A stretch of DNA of 64,000 nt, taken from NCBI GenBank assembly GCA_944359055.1, contig CALVSO010000003.1, forward strand, positions 4,832 through 68,831, in the 5' to 3' direction. Made by a program: the position numbers and the translations under genes. A model generated the notes under the pieces. That model was not told the DNA's origin. It was given only the letters and a program-made list of their open reading frames with translations, and ran no database searches. Below, in pieces: positions 53,447-63,900 of this stretch. Origin of the DNA: an uncultured Bacilli bacterium. Its GTDB lineage: Bacteria; Bacillota_I; Bacilli_A; RF39; UBA660. Position 1 is the stretch's first letter; every line of letters begins with the position of its first letter.

Positions 53447-53636
53447 TTCCTAAAATAATTATAACATTTTTATTTCAATCGAACAATATAACTTGCAATT
53501 AACTCAAAAATATGCTATCATGTATATAGATGTGATTTTTATCATATAATAAAAAAGGTAATACTTGATTTTGCGCGTTAAGTATCTACCTATTAGTTGG
53601 TGGTAGATACCTAATCTACAATAGTGATTAGGTATC

Positions 53637-53729
53637 TTATTTTATTTCTATTATAATTAATAGAGTTACTAATAAAACGATTATAATTAATAAAAATATA
53701 TTTATTATAAATACATCTTTTTTAGTCAT
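53637..53729 (-). CDS. candidate 30 aa hydrophobic peptide (type I toxin-like)
   Basis: GGAGG 9 nt upstream of the ATG. Peptide MTKKDVFIINIFLLIIIVLLVTLLIIIEIK. The SD lies in an inverted repeat (CCTCC-ttcca-GGAGG), and two overlapping hairpins follow the stop. Confidence 0.3.
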   Translation of the reverse strand: MTKKDVFIINIFLLIIIVLLVTLLIIIEIK

Positions 53730-53819
53730 TTTATCAATCCTCCTTCCAGGAGGTAGACACCTAACAATCTTGCATTACCTAATATAAATTATATCATAAA
53801 ATTAATTATATGTAAATAA

Positions 53820-54524
53820 TTAATTTTTATTTTGCATTTTAAACTCTTTGAATATTTTTGTTAAAGCTCTTTTTTCAATTCTTGAAACATAGCTTCTTGA
53901 AATTCCTAATTGTTTAGCTATTTCTTTTTGAGTAACTTCTCTTTCATTATTTAAACCATATCTTTTAATTATTATTTCTTTTTCTCTTTCATCTAAAATA
54001 TTAAAATATTTTTTTAATAAAACAATATTATCTTTTTTTTGAATATCATTCTCAAAATCAGGTTTAGGCGTTTTTAATATATCTAAAAATGTTATTTCAT
54101 TACCATCTTTATCAAATCCAATTGATTCATTTAAACTAATGTTTTTACTATTCTTTTTATCACTTCGATAATACATTAATATCTCATTTTCAATACATTT
54201 GGCAGCATAAGTAGTTAATCTTGTTCCTTTTTTGTAACTAAAACTATCTACTCCTTTAATTAATCCAATTGTTCCAATACTAATTAAATCATCAACATCA
54301 TTTTTTTTATGATCATATTTTTTTACTATATGCGCTACCAATCTTAAATTGTGTTCAATCAATTTATTTCTTGCATCTTTATCTCCTAGATGCATTAAAG
54401 ATACACATTTTTCTTCTTCCTCTTTTGATAATGGATCAGGAAAAACATTATTTGAATAAGCAGCTGTAAAAATATAAAAGTCTTTGAACAATTTTTTTAA
54501 TAATTCTAACATATCACACCTCAA
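53820..54524 (-). CDS. sigK: sporulation sigma factor SigK-like, with N-terminal pro-sequence
   Basis: AFPDPLSKEEEEKCVSLMHLGDKDARNKLIEHNLRLVAHIVKKY...DLISIGTIGLIKG...KDGNEI...ISRSYVSRIEKRAL closely parallels B. subtilis SigK. Confidence 0.8.
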   Translation of the reverse strand: MRCDMLELLKKLFKDFYIFTAAYSNNVFPDPLSKEEEEKCVSLMHLGDKDARNKLIEHNLRLVAHIVKKYDHKKNDVDDLISIGTIGLIKGVDSFSYKKGTRLTTYAAKCIENEILMYYRSDKKNSKNISLNESIGFDKDGNEITFLDILKTPKPDFENDIQKKDNIVLLKKYFNILDEREKEIIIKRYGLNNEREVTQKEIAKQLGISRSYVSRIEKRALTKIFKEFKMQNKN

Positions 54525-55293
54525 TTAAATTTTATGTTTTTGCTTTTAAAAGTATTAAAACTTTAATTTTGTAGTAAAATCTTGTGATACCACAAAAATT
54601 TAAAACTTAGTCATATCATAAAAATATCAAAAAAAATTTACTTTTTTATCATTATATGTTAAAATAACTAAAGATGGAGTTGATATGGTAAGGAGAACTT
54701 TTGTTTTATTTGTTTTAGTCGCTATAGTAATAACAATATTTAAAACAACGAAATACAGAAAATTAAGAAACGAGAAATTATTTTGAATTAAGTTTCATAA
54801 AGTGAAAAAATAATTTTGTTCAAAATGCAGCTTTAACTTAACACTTGATAAACAATGTGATAGAAAGAAAATAATAAAAATTGCTTTAATAAAATGAAAA
54901 GAGTATGAAAAAAAATAATTGATAAATCAAATAGTTGTATTAATTGTAATTCTTAATTAATAAAAAAAGAAAAACAATTGAATATAAAGTAGATTTGACG
55001 AGAATGATATTACTTATTATAACAAATTTAGGATTTATTTTATAATATGATTTTTTTGTTCTATTATCTACATAAAAAATGATTTGAAACTAAATTAAAT
55101 GTTGCTAATATTTTAGTGTAAATTCAAACACTAAGTTTTATTTAATGTGTTTTTCTTTATAGTTGTTATTGATTTACAAAAAATTACATTGCTTATTTAA
55201 TAAATGAGTATAAAGTTACAAGCATCCTTTTATCTTATAATTTATTTAATGATTTACTAGTAATAACATTAGCTTATATTTATATGAAAGTAG

Positions 55294-55644
55294 GTGAAAT
55301 GTAAAATGGCTTTAATTAAATGTGAAGAATGTGGAAAAGAGATAAGTGATAAAACTAAACAATGTGTTCATTGTGGTTATAATAATAGCGAAATAAATTC
55401 TTATTTAAAAAGTGGAAATGGCGTTGCAGTTGCAATTGTTGTACTTGGAATAACGGTAGGATGTATATTATTTTTAACGGGAATAGATTTAACTCAACTT
55501 GAGTCTGTATCTGGCAATTCTGTAGCAGAAAGTTATTATCAACATATAGGCTTCGCATTAATCGGTATATCTTTATATATAATTATGATAACAATTTATA
55601 TGTACAATAAAGTTAAAGGAAGTAAGGAAATAAAATGGCTTTAA
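55294..55644 (+). CDS. zinc-ribbon plus 2-TM small membrane protein (likely start MALIKCEECGK near 55306)
   Basis: CEECGKEISDKTKQCVHCGY followed by two hydrophobic helices. Confidence 0.5.
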   Translation: MKCKMALIKCEECGKEISDKTKQCVHCGYNNSEINSYLKSGNGVAVAIVVLGITVGCILFLTGIDLTQLESVSGNSVAESYYQHIGFALIGISLYIIMITIYMYNKVKGSKEIKWL

Positions 55645-56033
55645 TTAAATGCAAAGAATGTGGAAAAGAGATAAGTGATAAAGCTAAACAATGTGTTCAT
55701 TGTGGTTATGAGAATGATACAATAAAATGTAAAGAATGTGGAAAAGAAATAAGTAAAAATGCTAATGTTTGCTTTCATTGTGGAAATCCAATTAATAAAA
55801 ACATTAGACATAATGAAACTAATAATAATGAATTAGAAACAAAAGCATCTACTGCATATACATTTGCAATATTAGGTTTATTATTAATAGGTCCTCTAAC
55901 CATACCAGGATTAATTATGGCAAATAGTGTATTACAAGTAAATCCTAATCATCCAAAAGCTAAAAATGCTAAAATTATAAGTATAATTGGTTTAATTTTA
56001 TGGGGTCTAATTTTTATAATAACTATATCATGA
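55635..56033 (+). CDS. double zinc-ribbon plus 2-TM membrane protein (tandem paralogue)
   Basis: MALIKCKECGKEISDKAKQCVHCGY plus a second ribbon CKECGKEISKNANVCFHCG, then two TM helices. Confidence 0.55.
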   Translation: MALIKCKECGKEISDKAKQCVHCGYENDTIKCKECGKEISKNANVCFHCGNPINKNIRHNETNNNELETKASTAYTFAILGLLLIGPLTIPGLIMANSVLQVNPNHPKAKNAKIISIIGLILWGLIFIITIS

Positions 56034-56353
56034 TATTTTAAATAACTTTATTTAACAACTGGCACACTTTTTTCTCTCATCAAACAGAACAATTATTAGA
56101 TCAACTCCATTTAATAGTTAGAAAATATAAATTTGGCGTATGCCAAATTTTTTATAATGTCAATAATAGTGTTAACTGTAGAAATTTCCTTTTAAGATTA
56201 TTTATTAATTATTATGCTTGAATGTAGAAATCACCTAATGTAAAAATCAACCTACCTACACTAAAAATGTGAATTTTGTTTTATCGCCAAAACCAATTTT
56301 TTCAACTAAAATTCTTCTAATTATCTAAAATTTTTTTAATCTATTTGACAATT

Positions 56354-56701
56354 TTATAGTGTGAACATTATTTTTTCAGTAGATTTAGCAACATATCTTG
56401 TTCCTTTTTTGTAACTAAAACTATCTACTCCTTTAATTAATCCAATTGTTCCAATACTAATTAAATCATCAACATCATTTTTTTTATGATCATATTTTTT
56501 TACAATATGAGCTACTAATCTTAAGTTGTGTTCAATCAATTTATTACGTGCTTCTTTATCTCCTAAATGCATTAAGGATACACATTTTTCTTCCTCTTCT
56601 TTTGATAATGGATCAGGAAATACATTATTTGAATAAGCTGCTGTAAAAATATAAAAGTCTTTAAACAATTTTTTTAATAATTCTAACATAACACACCTCA
56701 A
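56354..56701 (-). pseudogene. truncated duplicate of the sigK 5' region (promoter, RBS and first 101 codons nearly identical, then decayed)
   Basis: 99/101 identical residues with 53820-54524. The upstream leader (56702-56760) is near-identical to 54525-54585. It diverges after KKGTR through a 9-bp deletion plus substitutions. Confidence 0.7.
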
Positions 56702-56793
56702 TTAAATTTTATGTTTTTACTTTTAAAAGTATTAAATTTAAGATATAATAGTATTAATAGTTTATTTTTTCACATACTAGAAAGGGTGATTTT

Positions 56794-58041
56794 ATGTATA
56801 GTAATTGTTCAAATAAAGCTTACAATCTACACATTATTAGAACTGATAAATTTAAAACAGTATCAGTAAGAATAAACTTTAAAAAATTATTAGAAAAAAA
56901 AGATATTACATATCGTAATTTATTAGGCAAAATATTATTAAATTCTAATAATACATATAAAACAAAAAGAGATTTAGATATTGAAACAGAAAATTTATAT
57001 GGTATTGGAATAGGATGTTCTAATTCATTGATGGGTAATTATATTGTTACTTCATTCAACTCTAATTTTTTAAATGAAAAATATACTGAAGAAAATATGA
57101 ATAAAACATCAATTGAATTTTTATTAAGTTTAATATTTAATCCTAATGTTGAAGATAATAAGTTTAAAGATTTTGATTTAGCTAAAAGATTGGTAACTGA
57201 TGAAATAGATTCTTTAAAAGATAATACTAAAAGATATTCTTTACAAAGAATGTTTGAAATATTAGGTAAAGATACACCATTAGAATATAATTCAATTGGT
57301 TATAAAGAAGATTTAGATCCTGATAATTTATATGAATATTATAAAAAAATGCTTAAAAGTGATTTAATTGACATATTTGTAATTGGTGATGTTAATGAAG
57401 AAGAAATTGTAGAAATATTTAATAAAAACTTTAATGTTAATACAATCAAAAGACCTGGTATATCTCATTTTGTAACTCAAAATATAACTAAATTAAGTAA
57501 AATTAAAGAAACATTACCAATTGAACAAACTAATTTAAATATTGGATTTAAAATTAAAGATTTAACTGACTTTGAAAAACAATATGTTTTATATATTTAT
57601 TCTTTTATTTTAGGCGGTAGTCCTAATTCAAAACTATTTAAAACAGTAAGAGAAAAAAATAGTTTATGTTATAGTATAAACGCTACTTTTAAAGCAATTT
57701 ATAATATTTTATATATTACAGTTGGTACTAATAAAGACGATGTTAAAAAATGCTTAAGTTTAATAAAAAAAGAATTCAATAGAATGGGCAAAGGTGATTT
57801 TACTGATAATGATATCGAATCAGCTAAAATAACTTACATAAATAGTTTAAAAGATATTGAAGATTATCAAGCTAGTATTTTAAGAATGTATGAAAGTAAT
57901 ATTTATTTCAATTACGACTTGTTAGATGAAAGAATTAAAAATATAAGTAAAGTTACCAAAGAGGATATTATTAATTTACATAAAAAAATTAATATGGATA
58001 CAATATTTGTTTTAGAAGGTGAAAATAATGAAGAAAATTAA
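56794..58041 (+). CDS. M16 family peptidase-like protein lacking the HxxEH motif (non-catalytic partner)
   Basis: Pitrilysin-like fold and length, with no zinc-binding HxxEH. Overlaps the downstream M16 gene. Confidence 0.55.
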   Translation: MYSNCSNKAYNLHIIRTDKFKTVSVRINFKKLLEKKDITYRNLLGKILLNSNNTYKTKRDLDIETENLYGIGIGCSNSLMGNYIVTSFNSNFLNEKYTEENMNKTSIEFLLSLIFNPNVEDNKFKDFDLAKRLVTDEIDSLKDNTKRYSLQRMFEILGKDTPLEYNSIGYKEDLDPDNLYEYYKKMLKSDLIDIFVIGDVNEEEIVEIFNKNFNVNTIKRPGISHFVTQNITKLSKIKETLPIEQTNLNIGFKIKDLTDFEKQYVLYIYSFILGGSPNSKLFKTVREKNSLCYSINATFKAIYNILYITVGTNKDDVKKCLSLIKKEFNRMGKGDFTDNDIESAKITYINSLKDIEDYQASILRMYESNIYFNYDLLDERIKNISKVTKEDIINLHKKINMDTIFVLEGENNEEN

Positions 58042-59995: not shown

Positions 59996-60847
59996 TTACT
60001 TATTTTCGATTAATTTTTCATCTTTATATTCATAACCTAAATAATTATCTTTAGATATAACAGTTTCTCCTAATTGCTTTTCTAATTCATCGCGAGCAAC
60101 TTTAGCCACACTACCACCTATTTTAGCTACTTTTATATTGTTCCTTAATCCTTGTGGTTTTTGTTTATTAGCTAGTCTTTTTGTTGCCTCTTCACCTAAA
60201 TCAGCTAATGTTACTTCAATACTATCCATATTATCCCTTAAAGATTCTTTTCTTAATCCTTTATATTCTTTATACTCTTTAGCAGTCATACCTGACCAAC
60301 TTTTATATATTTCATTTGTTAAAATGCCATATTCATAATTTTCAGTAATTCCATTTTCTTTCCATACATCAGTTAAACTTTTTCTTTGCTGAATTCCCTT
60401 TATTCGTTTAGCTATCCATAATTCATCGTATCCTTTAGAACGATATAAATCTATTAATCTTTGAATACCAATTGAAGGATCAAATACTTCATCAATTCTT
60501 TCACCACCTAATTTTGCCAACCATTGTTTTATCGGTTCAGCATTTTTACTTGGTATTGATTCAATTATTCTAAACATTCCTTCAATATCTACAACATCTG
60601 TTAAGCGATATTTACCATCTTGAGCTTTCAATTTCAACTGGTGACAATTTGTCACCGTTTCATTTCCTTCTTCTTTTAATCTTTGTTTTAATTTATTCCA
60701 GTATTTTCTTCCATCCTTACTTTCTGATAGAATACTTACAACGTCAACAACACTAATATAATATTTTTCTTCATCTTTGTCCCATATTGTTCTAATATTA
60801 TCATTATTAAATATTTTATTTATTAAATATGTTTTATCTTGTTTCAT
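59996..60847 (-). CDS. Bro-N domain protein (DinD/antirepressor-like)
   Basis: N-terminal NIRTIWDKDEEKYYISVVDVVSILSES...KYWNKLKQRL resembles Bro-N/KilA-N. Confidence 0.45.
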   Translation of the reverse strand: MKQDKTYLINKIFNNDNIRTIWDKDEEKYYISVVDVVSILSESKDGRKYWNKLKQRLKEEGNETVTNCHQLKLKAQDGKYRLTDVVDIEGMFRIIESIPSKNAEPIKQWLAKLGGERIDEVFDPSIGIQRLIDLYRSKGYDELWIAKRIKGIQQRKSLTDVWKENGITENYEYGILTNEIYKSWSGMTAKEYKEYKGLRKESLRDNMDSIEVTLADLGEEATKRLANKQKPQGLRNNIKVAKIGGSVAKVARDELEKQLGETVISKDNYLGYEYKDEKLIENK

Positions 60848-60932
60848 ATTCCTCCTTCTAAACTCCTACAAACATATTATATCATACGAACATATATTTG
60901 TAAACGGTTGTTAAAAAAAGAAAAGAACAAAA

Positions 60933-63900
60933 TTAATTCTTTTCTACTTTGATAATAACATCTTCATCATTTAATTTATCATCAAATGCTAAAGTTTCAT
61001 CTTTAACTAATTCATCACCTAAAACTTCACCCATAACATAATCATAATATTTATCTAACATTTGATTTATTTTTTCACTTCCATGATAAATAACTTTAAT
61101 ATGATCTGTTATAACAAAGTCAGCTTCTTTTCTTAAACTTTGAACTTTACGAACAAATTCACGAGCTAAGCCTTCTAATATTAAATCTTCATTTAATTCA
61201 GTGTTTAATACAACACAAGTTTTATTATTACTACTTGAAGCATAACCTTCTTTTTGTTTTAAAGAAATTAAAACCATTTCATTAGTTAATTTAAAATCTT
61301 CATCGCCTAATTTAACAGTTAATCCATCACTTTGTAATAAGTTAATATCTTTAGTTGATAATTTAGTTAATATTTCTTGTAATTCTTTTACTTTAGGGCC
61401 TAAAGTCTTACCTAAAACTTTAAAATTAGGCTTAACTATATAATCTAAATATTCACTCATATCTTCTTTAAATATTATTTCTTTAACATTTAATTCTTCT
61501 TGGATAACAGATATTAAATTACCAATAATTCTTTCATCATTTTTAGGTAAAATTAAGTGTGATATTGGTTGTCTTACTTTAATATTAGCTTCTTCACGAG
61601 CAAATCTTCCTAATGAACAAACGTCTCTTACTAAATCCATTTGTTCTTCAATTTTTTCATCAATTAATTTTTCATTATATTTAGGGAAATCTGCTAAATG
61701 AATAGATTCTTCACCAGTTAATTTTTGATATATTTCTTCAGTTAAGAATGGCGTTATAGGAGCACATAACTTACATAATGTTACTAATACTTCATAAGTT
61801 GTTAAATAAACAGCTTTTTTAGATTCAGATAATTCACTATCCCAGAATCTTCTTCTATTACTTCTAATATACCAATTTGATAAATCATCATTTAAAAATG
61901 GTACTATTAATCTTGCAACTTTATTTAAATCATATTCTTCATAAGCTGAAGTTACATTTTTAATTAATTTATTTAATTTAGATAATAACCATCTATCAAT
62001 TAATTCTCTTTTACTTTCTTCAATATGATATTCTCTTGGATCAATATGATCAGCATTAGCATACATTTCGAAGAATGAATAAGCATTTTTAAATGTTGAT
62101 ATATATTTAGAATATATTTCTTTTAAACCAGTTTCATCAAATTTTAAAGGTGTCCAAACAGGAGAGGCATATAGCATATAATATCTTACTGTATCAGCTC
62201 CATATTCTGTCATAATTTTAACAGGATCAATAATATTACCAGTTGATTTACTCATTTTTTTACCATAAGCATCTAACATCATATCATTAACTACAACATT
62301 TTTAAAACTTGATTCTCCTGATATAATAGTTGATATAACTAATAATACATAGAACCATCCTCTTGTTTGATCTACACCTTCTGCTATAAAATCAGCTGGA
62401 AATTGTGATTCAAACAATTCTTTGTTTTCAAATGGATAATGAAATTGAGCATATGGCATAGATCCTGAATCAAACCAAACATCTAATACATCTTTCACTC
62501 TATCCATTACTTTACCACATTTACTACATTTAATATGTAATTCATCAACATAAGGACGATGCAATTCTATATTTTTTACATCAACATCTTCAATTATTTT
62601 TTCTTGTAATTCATCTAGAGATCCAATCACTTCTTTATGTCCACATTCACAAGTCCAAATAGGCATTGGACAACCCCAATATCTATTTCTTGAAATTCCC
62701 CAATCAACCATATTTTCTAACCAATTAGCAAATCTTTTTTCACCAATATAATCAGGATACCAATTAATCTTTTTATTTGCTTCAATTATTTTGTCTTTAT
62801 AAGCTGTAGTTTTAACATACCAAGCTGGTTTAGCATAATAAATTAAAGGACTCTTACATCTCCAACAATGTGGATAATCGTGAACTATTTTGATTTTCTT
62901 AAATAATTTATCATTTTCTTTTAAATATTTAACAATTTCAATTTCTAAATCAGTATCAGTTACTAATCTACCTTTCCAAGGTCCTTCTAAATAACATCCA
63001 TCTTTTCCAACAGAATTAACAAAAGAAATTCCTTTTTCACGACATACTCTATTATCATCTTCACCATAAGCAGGTGCGATATGAACAATACCAGTACCAT
63101 CAGAATCAGTTACGTAACTATCTGCTACAACTTCAAAAGCTTTACCTTCTACTTTAACAAAAGGTAATAATTGTTCGTATTTGATACCTTGTAAATCACT
63201 ACCTTTATATTTTTCTAATACTTTATAATCTTCACCCAATACTTTATCAGCTAAAGATTCACATAAAATAAATTTATAACCTTGACTTTCAACTTTTAAA
63301 TAAGTTAAATCTGGATTAACACAAATAGCAACATTAGCCATTAAAGTCCATGGTGTTGTTGTCCAAACTAAGAAATAAACATCTTCATCTTTTTTCTTAA
63401 AAGGAACAATAACAGTATTTACTGAATCTTGTTGATATCCTTGCGCTACTTCGTTACTAGATAATTCAGTACCACATCTTGGACAATAAGGTAATACTTT
63501 ATTTCCATGATAAATCAAACCTTTTTTGTCCATTTCTTTAACAATCCACCACTCAGATTCAATATATTCATTGTCACAAGTAACATATGGATGATCACAA
63601 TCAATAAATTGTCCCATCATATCAGTTATTTTTTTAACTTCACTTATATTAGTAGCTGTTTCACAATTACATTCATGACAAAAATTTTCAATACCAAACT
63701 TTTCAATATCAGATTTATTTTTAAAACCTAATTTCTTTTCAACATTAACTTCAATAGGTAATCCATGAGTATCTAATCCTATTTTTCTTAAAACTCGATA
63801 TCCTTGCATTGTTTTATATTTAGTAAATGAATCTTTGATTGTTTTAGCAAACACATGATGAATACCAGGTTTTGCATTAGCATAAATAGGTCCATCATAA

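Follow-up and report, generated by a model that had tools for sequence, protein, structure and literature searches.

A strain-variable 2,177-bp insertion-duplication at the sporulation gene sigK in uncultured gut Bacilli

Two copies of sigK and the direct repeat

The window analysed in this study is a stretch of 64,000 nucleotides from an uncultured Bacilli bacterium (assembly GCA_944359055.1, contig CALVSO010000003.1, positions 4,832 to 68,831 of the forward strand), and all coordinates given without a contig name refer to it. It contained an intact gene for the sporulation sigma factor SigK (sigK, 53820–54512, minus strand) and, in the same orientation, a truncated 5′ copy of sigK (the stub, 56354–56689, minus strand), with two zinc-ribbon/transmembrane genes, Zn1 and Zn2, between them. 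This layout, which had been described in a first-pass annotation of the window, was borne out by the sequence and by Pfam. In our study, we found that the locus carries a derived, strain-variable insertion of 2,177 bp, which is probably an insertion-duplication produced by a single crossover. The divergent neighbour of sigK, an M16-family peptidase gene (56794–58041, plus strand; Pfam Peptidase_M16_C), lies outside the insert and was used as the anchor for comparison between strains.

The intact gene encoded 230 amino acids from the ATG at 54512. The protein scored 302.6 bits with the NCBIfam model TIGR02846 (spore_sigmaK, cutoff 298.65) and 317.2 bits with NF004471 (cutoff 252), and the scores with the SigE models were 224 and 210, under their cutoffs of 339 and 349; by the SigK models the gene is sigK. 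Pfam found both Sigma70_r2 and Sigma70_r4. About 17 residues (MLELLKKLFKDFYIFTA) stood ahead of the conserved AYSNNVFPDPLS motif and may be a pro-sequence like that of B. subtilis pro-sigma-K. The leader of sigK and a putative sigma-E/K-type core promoter were read from the sequence at 54513–54559 (minus strand). They contained a ribosome-binding site (RBS), GAGGTG, at 54522–54517, a putative −10 element, CATAAAAT, at 54536–54529 and a putative −35 element, ATA, at 54555–54553, 16 nucleotides further up. The B. subtilis sigma-E consensus is ATA-N16-18-CATAcanT, and the putative sigK promoter presumably fits this type. The CATAAAAT and RBS blocks were kept in all lineages, down to about 80% nucleotide identity. 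The 47-nucleotide segment probably includes an active promoter.

The stub and the intact gene shared a direct repeat of 342 nucleotides, which lay at 54218–54559 at the intact gene and at 56395–56736 at the stub, both on the minus strand, with 16 mismatches in a base-by-base comparison at an offset of 2177; a repeat search returned a 300-nucleotide direct repeat of 95% identity with a spacing of 2177. A repeat of this extent lies well outside what chance would give. Each copy comprised 47 nucleotides upstream of the ATG, with the leader and core promoter, and codons 1–98 of sigK, and a run of 109 nucleotides free of mismatches adjoined the inner junction. Both ATGs (54512 and 56689) had the RBS GAGGTG 5 nucleotides upstream. 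Over the 98 codons, the copies differed by one amino acid, D46E (counted from the two ATGs). The first-pass annotation had given 101 codons and two differences; the shared 5′ coding part was correct, but the numbers were not, as it had counted from a TTG four codons upstream of the real ATG. It had also called the promoter of the two copies identical, and the core promoter is the same, but two substitutions were present in the 47 nucleotides, at 54514 and 54542. The homology began 4 nucleotides upstream of the putative −35 element. This is what selection would demand, as only events that leave the intact copy with its whole core promoter would have sporulating descendants.

The stub encoded 111 amino acids from its ATG, and frame comparison and Pfam mark it as a relic of the displaced native 5′ end, in which Sigma70_r2 alone was found, covered at profile positions 1–47 of 71. 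Past codon 98, a 9-bp gap was followed by a diverged remnant of sigK codons about 102–109 (56372–56394, minus strand), where 19 of the 23 nucleotides matched sigK (54186–54208) and which was invariant in all filled contigs; the deletion followed by substitutions had been read correctly in the annotation. The remaining 320 nucleotides past the stub were similar to the 3′ half of sigK only at the level of chance in local alignment (226 of the 500 shuffles scored as high), and tblastn found no similarity to the SigK protein behind the stub. A full-length decayed sigK pseudogene in this place was therefore rejected, the similarity being at shuffle level beyond about 30 nucleotides past codon 98.

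Empty sites, filled sites and the contents of the insert

The exact SigK protein of the window was found on at least 22 contigs in public assemblies. In most of these (L002–L010), sigK adjoined the M16 gene divergently with 104 nucleotides between the start codons, and neither the stub nor the zinc-ribbon genes were present. The arrangement of the window was found in L001, which was 100% identical to it over 3.5 kb, and in three similar contigs, and the exact Zn2 protein was present on at least 23 contigs, always in this arrangement. Against the empty sites of L002–L010, the filled allele was the empty allele plus exactly 2,177 bp. The adjacency of M16 and sigK was also found in the lineages with SigK 96–97%, 91%, 89% and 87% identical, of which the 91% lineage is named Candidatus Faecisoma merdavium by NCBI. 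Since every related lineage examined had this adjacency, the empty site is ancestral, and the 2,177-bp segment was inserted later and in some strains only. The stub holds the ancestral position of sigK, because the distance from its ATG to the ATG of M16 was 104 nucleotides, as at the empty sites, and because its upstream flank (56737–56793), the part of the native sigK–M16 intergenic region outside the repeat, was identical to that of the empty-site contigs. Among the GTDB representatives, which do not include the species of the window, the nearest SigK was 70–75% identical and had no neighbours in common.

These comparisons bear on three points of the first-pass annotation. The tandem duplication that it had proposed was not upheld, as the 1.8 kb between the copies was unrelated to the empty-site contigs or to the rest of the region, and a 2,177-bp insertion was found instead. 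Its other suggestion, the footprint of a past insertion at sigK, agrees with the empty sites. It had also allowed for the stub copy being absent in all relatives; the copy was present in some of them and missing in most.

The foreign part of the insert was about 1,834–1,835 bp long (2,177 minus 342). It began with an AT-rich spacer (54560–55293, GC 18.7%) upstream of the zinc-ribbon operon, which was missing from the empty-site contigs. The region of 769 bp at 54525–55293 had been noted as poor in open reading frames (ORFs), which was confirmed, yet it holds a decayed third zinc-ribbon gene (54877–55043, plus strand). This relic paralog of Zn1 and Zn2 was found by local alignment, with 115 of the 173 nucleotides matching Zn1 and a score of 41 against a dinucleotide-shuffle mean of 17.4 (sd 2.2, z = 10.9, none of the 300 shuffles as high). 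The spacer also contained a possible small ORF of 33 hydrophobic amino acids with a GGAG RBS (54685–54786, plus strand, from the ORF list), a candidate gene for which the family searches gave no match. Zn1 (55306–55644, plus strand, 112 amino acids) had an N-terminal zinc ribbon (Pfam Zn_Ribbon_1, E = 3e-5) and hydrophobic segments, and Zn2 (55635–56033, plus strand, 132 amino acids) had a double zinc ribbon (Zn_Ribbon_1, E = 1.5e-12; DZR, E = 1e-8) and a hydrophobic C-terminal half. The 5′ ends of Zn1 and Zn2 were a 90% nucleotide repeat. The zinc-ribbon module was present three times in the two genes (55302–55397, 55631–55726 and 55709–55804, with 90% and 67% nucleotide identity), in addition to the relic in the spacer. 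The cassette forms a short array, which grows and decays by tandem duplication.

For Zn1 and Zn2, Pfam and PHROGs matched the zinc-ribbon motifs alone, and PADLOC gave no match. The homologs of Zn2 were 99% identical (at this locus only) or 87% identical (one protein), and all others were at most 47% identical. The 87% homolog was found on L155, a contig of 824 nucleotides without context, where the operon DNA was 88.6% identical. A predicted bidirectional intrinsic terminator (56129–56150) with a 9-bp stem and T-runs on both strands was located between Zn2 and the stub by a terminator scan of both strands, for which 0.2 sites were expected by chance; this hairpin should halt both converging transcripts, from Zn2 and from the stub. 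The non-coding tail of the insert (56034–56371) was unlike sigK and was 98.9–100% identical in all filled contigs.

The ORFs of at least 25 amino acids in the insert were Zn1, Zn2, the 33-amino-acid ORF and antisense ORFs only. In the ORF list and by Pfam, no recombinase, integrase, recombination directionality factor or transposase was found in the insert, nor any relic ORF of these. Blastn of the insert against 50,697 phage records gave no match, and the matches of its proteins in IMG/VR and PHROG were to the generic ribbon motif only. A phage or plasmid origin of the insert was rejected on the absence of phage DNA matches, the restriction of protein matches to the ribbon motif and the absence of a PADLOC match. 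An origin as an insertion sequence (IS) or transposon was likewise rejected, as the insert has no transposase and is flanked by a repeat that consists of 342 bp of a gene, unlike the 27-bp duplication made by an ISNCY element in one of the strains. The latter element, about 1.7 kb long, was found inside the spacer of contig L013 (L013:3065–4756), with a 27-bp target-site duplication of window positions 54611–54637 and a transposase of 466 amino acids that scored 392 bits on NF033594 (cutoff 250).

Some features of the neighbourhood were also recorded. On the 3′ side of sigK, a GC-rich palindrome, CCTCCTTCCAGGAGG (hairpin 53739–53753), overlapped a strong RBS and was followed by a 30-codon hydrophobic ORF (MTKKDVFIINIFLLIIIVLL..., about 53637–53729, minus strand), which may encode a small membrane peptide co-transcribed with or following sigK. 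In sister lineages, a gene for a 264-amino-acid Fic-domain protein was present between sigK and an ABC-transporter gene (L101:6208–7002, L107:6207–7001, L112:6207–7001), whereas in the species of the window this gene was missing and a 373-nucleotide intergenic region (53447–53819) was found instead. A second variable spot extended from the isoleucyl-tRNA synthetase gene to a Bro-N gene (59996–63854 in the window, and also in L005, L012, L013, L016 and L112). Depending on the strain, it contained a NUDIX gene, an S66 peptidase gene or ORFs of 314–423 amino acids without Pfam matches, and the Bro-N gene was fragmented in some strains (L004, L126). The contig, with a GC content of about 24%, encodes SigK, YabP, a GerQ-domain protein and other sporulation-associated genes. 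Candidatus Faecisoma, the nearest named relative (SigK 91%), is placed in Mycoplasmatota incertae sedis in the NCBI taxonomy; the sporulation genes agree less well with this placement than with a Bacilli/Erysipelotrichales-like spore-former.

Origin and spread of the insertion

The junction, comprising the 9-bp gap, the 23-nucleotide tail and its continuation, was identical in all nine filled contigs that cover it, so the insertion arose once, from one founding event. In contigs of the same species, the insert was 99.6–100% identical to that of the window. In contig L019, the flanks were more distant from the window (M16 genes 90.3–90.6%, stub 90%), and the insert was 98.9% identical in the tail, 99.2% in Zn2 and 98.2% in Zn1. 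The flanks of L019 were those of the lineage of L107, L108 and L161 (M16a 96–98%), which has empty-site members too. By this sequence comparison, the insert is polymorphic in two species-level lineages, is much younger than their split and has moved horizontally between them, since it is 98–99% identical while the flanks are only about 90% identical. The few variants that the insert of L019 has of its own argue against a chimeric assembly. Homologous recombination through the conserved flanks would most simply account for the spread.

The number of differences between the two sigK copies was 16, 7, 4, 9 and 1 in five strains with inserts at least 99.6% identical; the copies exchange sequence. 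Outside the repeats, contig L017 was identical to the window, and its stub copy was nearly so. The 5′ end of its intact gene carried the stub-type sequence of the window, with 13 changes, all within that repeat; here, gene conversion has copied a tract of the relic into the working sigK. In the window, codons 46–63 of the stub had variants of the L019/L161 type (GAA, CGT, ATT), consistent with co-transfer of the stub sequence next to the insert when the insert entered the species of the window. The switch points lay at about codons 24–39 in the window and within about 30 nucleotides of the junction, or nowhere, in L019, and such differing points are consistent with later spread by homologous recombination. 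Two sister-lineage alleles at empty sites, P0137 and P0149 (L162:4282–4974 and L163:1816–2508), began with MLELL as in the species of the window and not with MLEFL, which points to frequent recombination between lineages within sigK, also in the absence of the insert. Their interpretation as chimeric intact genes of filled strains was rejected, both being at empty sites.

On balance, we consider it probable that the derived insertion at this locus is an insertion-duplication which originated by a single crossover. A circular DNA with the zinc-ribbon operon joined to a truncated 5′ fragment of sigK would have entered the cell, and one RecA-type (Campbell-type) crossover would have given the stub, the insert and the intact gene in one orientation. 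Later spread would have proceeded by homologous recombination through M16 and the stub on one side and sigK on the other. As in the product of a single crossover, direct repeats of the target gene were found to flank the foreign DNA, with one copy truncated and one complete, and the relatives had an empty site that differed by one repeat and the foreign DNA. The duplicated piece has everything needed 5′ of the junction, so the downstream copy and the native 3′ half together form a complete sigK equipped with a promoter; upstream of the intact copy, just 47 nucleotides of native-type sequence preceded the insert DNA. In a spore-former, only insertions that leave sigK whole would be expected to survive. 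In E. coli, an assay for homology-facilitated illegitimate recombination (HFIR) gave 56 of 60 integrants with a duplication of 109–950 bp of the locus instead, made by a single crossover with circles that carry a shortened homologous fragment (PMC3240628). The 342-bp duplication falls inside this range, and the E. coli result is an experimental precedent for the mechanism.

Several results weigh against a single-crossover origin. A circular form was not found; contig L020 (2,304 nucleotides) ends inside the repeats, and its ends were not identical. A donor locus with the zinc-ribbon operon beside sigK was not found in 17 GTDB relatives, the junction sequence had no exact match in the metagenome collection, and the best full-length distant relatives of Zn2 (36–42% identical) had no sigK or M16 nearby. 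The 9-bp gap and the 4 mismatches in 23 nucleotides at the end of the stub are not predicted by a clean single crossover, and such an untidy junction needs an extra step under any model, either an imprecise fragment end or later decay. The L019 contig ends inside the spacer, short of the right-hand junction and of the reciprocal crossover points. Finally, the same final structure would result from linear DNA through HFIR or from a degraded integrase-borne island.

An extension of the single-crossover origin, which we regard as speculative and rather unlikely, is that the 2,177-bp unit is a mobile islet without a recombinase, addressed by homology, and that the stub is a standing template for gene conversion of sigK. 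If the 342-bp repeats recombined, the unit would be released as a circle, and one RecA crossover could then bring it into any genome in which sigK is conserved. If this were true, integration would never inactivate sigK, as the address includes the promoter and the start of the gene. The role of the stub as a template is suggested by L017.

Among the other explanations, a remnant of an island or prophage that targeted sigK near codons 98–110 with an integrase since lost, and that brought its own promoter and 5′ segment, is improbable. The gene is a known hot spot for integrating elements (PMC5025042, PMC3442830), the junction is precise and the same everywhere, the duplicated segment restores the 5′ end just as such islands do, and the insert moves between lineages. 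However, the 1.8 kb contained none of the integrase genes, directionality factors or relics expected, and neither phage DNA similarity nor viral homologs past a ribbon motif were found. No longer form of the insert was present in about 30 contigs, where the only size variant was due to the unrelated ISNCY insertion, and the sequence past the stub is still like sigK, which an unrelated attP arm would not be.

A comparably small chance is given to linear foreign DNA that integrated by HFIR, with the 3′ half of sigK as the anchor and the far end joined illegitimately near codons 100–110. This process integrates DNA with homology on one side (PMC3240628), and it has been proposed for the displacement of gene ends with orphan fragments at type VI secretion system (T6SS) and Rhs loci (PMC5361080). 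The untidy junction, with its gap and clustered mismatches, also resembles an illegitimate joint. But HFIR usually deletes recipient DNA and does not duplicate it, and in the direct E. coli test it was rare (3e-10), most events being single-crossover duplications (PMC3240628). It would also need a donor with the zinc-ribbon operon natively upstream of sigK, and none was found, as all sampled lineages had M16 there.

The first-pass annotation had further suggested that a truncated product of 111 or 115 amino acids acts as a decoy. A selected decoy, in which the pro-sequence and regions 2.1–2.2 titrate core RNA polymerase or the pro-sigma-K protease and so tune the timing of late sporulation, is very unlikely. 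The stub frame of 111 codons was open in six of the nine filled contigs, namely the window and five others, with its own RBS and core promoter, the Sigma70_r2 positions mentioned above were kept, and the differences between the copies of the window were almost all synonymous. But the frame was broken in the other three contigs, by a change of A8 to A7 that leaves 76 codons in L013 and L014 and by two indels (+1 and −1) in L019, so the product of the stub is not conserved among the carriers of the insert, and the copy is missing from most strains of the species. Alleles of functional sigK genes, moved by recombination or gene conversion, account for the synonymous bias: most of the differences in the window are alleles that segregate among functional sigK genes. 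The private changes of the L019 stub were 11 synonymous and 2 nonsynonymous (random expectation 19%), and most of these variants, including E46-S47-R48 as GAA TCT CGT, were carried by L161, an empty-site contig from the sub-lineage of L019. Since its variants are shared with this empty-site contig, the stub of L019 is the displaced 5′ end of its own lineage. A donor from an unsampled lineage, which the synonymous bias of L019 had suggested, was rejected because L161 holds those variants. Purifying selection on the stub was rejected in view of native alleles, gene conversion and the broken frames. The stub is a decaying gene relic.

It is highly unlikely that the filled arrangement is ancestral, as an old tandem duplication, and that the empty sites are deletions between the 342-bp repeats. 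Repeats of this length can recombine and would remove the insert precisely, and the copies do interact. The empty arrangement was, however, present in every lineage from 87% to 100% SigK identity, the near identity of the insert across flanks about 10% diverged makes it younger than the split, and the variants linked to the insert (such as C at 54542 and CGT at codon 48) were found in no empty-site allele of the species of the window. An assembly artefact such as a chimeric or mis-joined repeat, a concern in the first-pass annotation, has a negligible chance: assembly stops at a repeat or close to one in some metagenome contigs (L015, L020, L157), but contigs that span both repeats in this arrangement came from separate assemblies of at least 10 samples in three projects, and they contain strain-specific variants, frameshifts and, in one strain, an internal IS.

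Comparison with known systems

The feature is a recombination scar of a common kind, left around a small cassette that spreads horizontally, and it is neither a skin-type element nor a regulatory device. The scar is tidy and instructive, and it will not surprise a specialist; it raises no new question on the regulation of sigma-K. It illustrates a way in which foreign DNA can land in a sporulation gene that the cell cannot do without: the duplicated promoter and 5′ part make a skin-like excision unnecessary. With empty and filled alleles in two species-level lineages, it is also a clean natural example of insertion-duplication, of the spread of a small cassette between lineages through homologous recombination and of exchange between a gene and its relic. 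For annotation, the caution is that an additional sigK ORF in gut Bacilli of this kind marks a scar and is no paralog.

The locus has the order of a Campbell-type insertion-duplication, with the truncated copy, foreign DNA and the complete copy in one orientation and no need of a dedicated recombinase. It differs in that the event is natural, in an uncultured gut spore-former, and the circle was not seen; there is an additional 9-bp gap with a diverged 23-nucleotide tail at the junction; and the target gene remains functional because its promoter is part of the fragment.

Skin-type elements (B. subtilis skin, C. difficile skinCd and the phiS63-like element of C. perfringens) are likewise foreign DNA in or at the sigK of a spore-former (PMC5025042, PMC3442830). 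In those cases the sigK ORF is interrupted by the element, which carries the gene for a large serine recombinase (SpoIVCA or CD1231) and has to leave the chromosome of the mother cell before sigK is whole again (PMC5025042). In contrast, the sigK studied here is continuous over 230 codons, and the insertion is 2.2 kb against 14–48 kb for skin and has no recombinase. No excision is required, since sigK is intact. A skin-type history, which had been raised for this locus, is contradicted by the uninterrupted gene, the absence of a recombinase or its relic and the absence of phage similarity in the insert.

In integrative islands that restore the 5′ end of their target, sequence borne by the element keeps the gene intact and the displaced native 5′ fragment lies at the other border, as was found here. 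SXT/R391 at prfC and the dusA-specific islands enter a gene at its 5′ end, which they replace with one of their own that has a promoter. SpyCI at mutL is a further island of this kind (PMC4129442). These islands have a tyrosine integrase, defined att sites and a length of tens of kb, whereas none of these was found at sigK.

The closest evolutionary analogy is the displacement of gene ends at Rhs and T6SS loci, mirrored here to the 5′ end. In the C-terminal tips of Rhs and contact-dependent inhibition (CDI) genes and in the T6SS effector-immunity arrays of V. cholerae, incoming DNA recombines through the conserved part and orphans the old end, and homologous recombination spreads the arrays between strains (PMC5361080). 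Those cases concern the variable 3′ ends of toxin genes under diversifying selection, whereas the displaced part in our study is the 5′ end of a conserved, housekeeping-type sporulation gene, and both ends encode the same protein.

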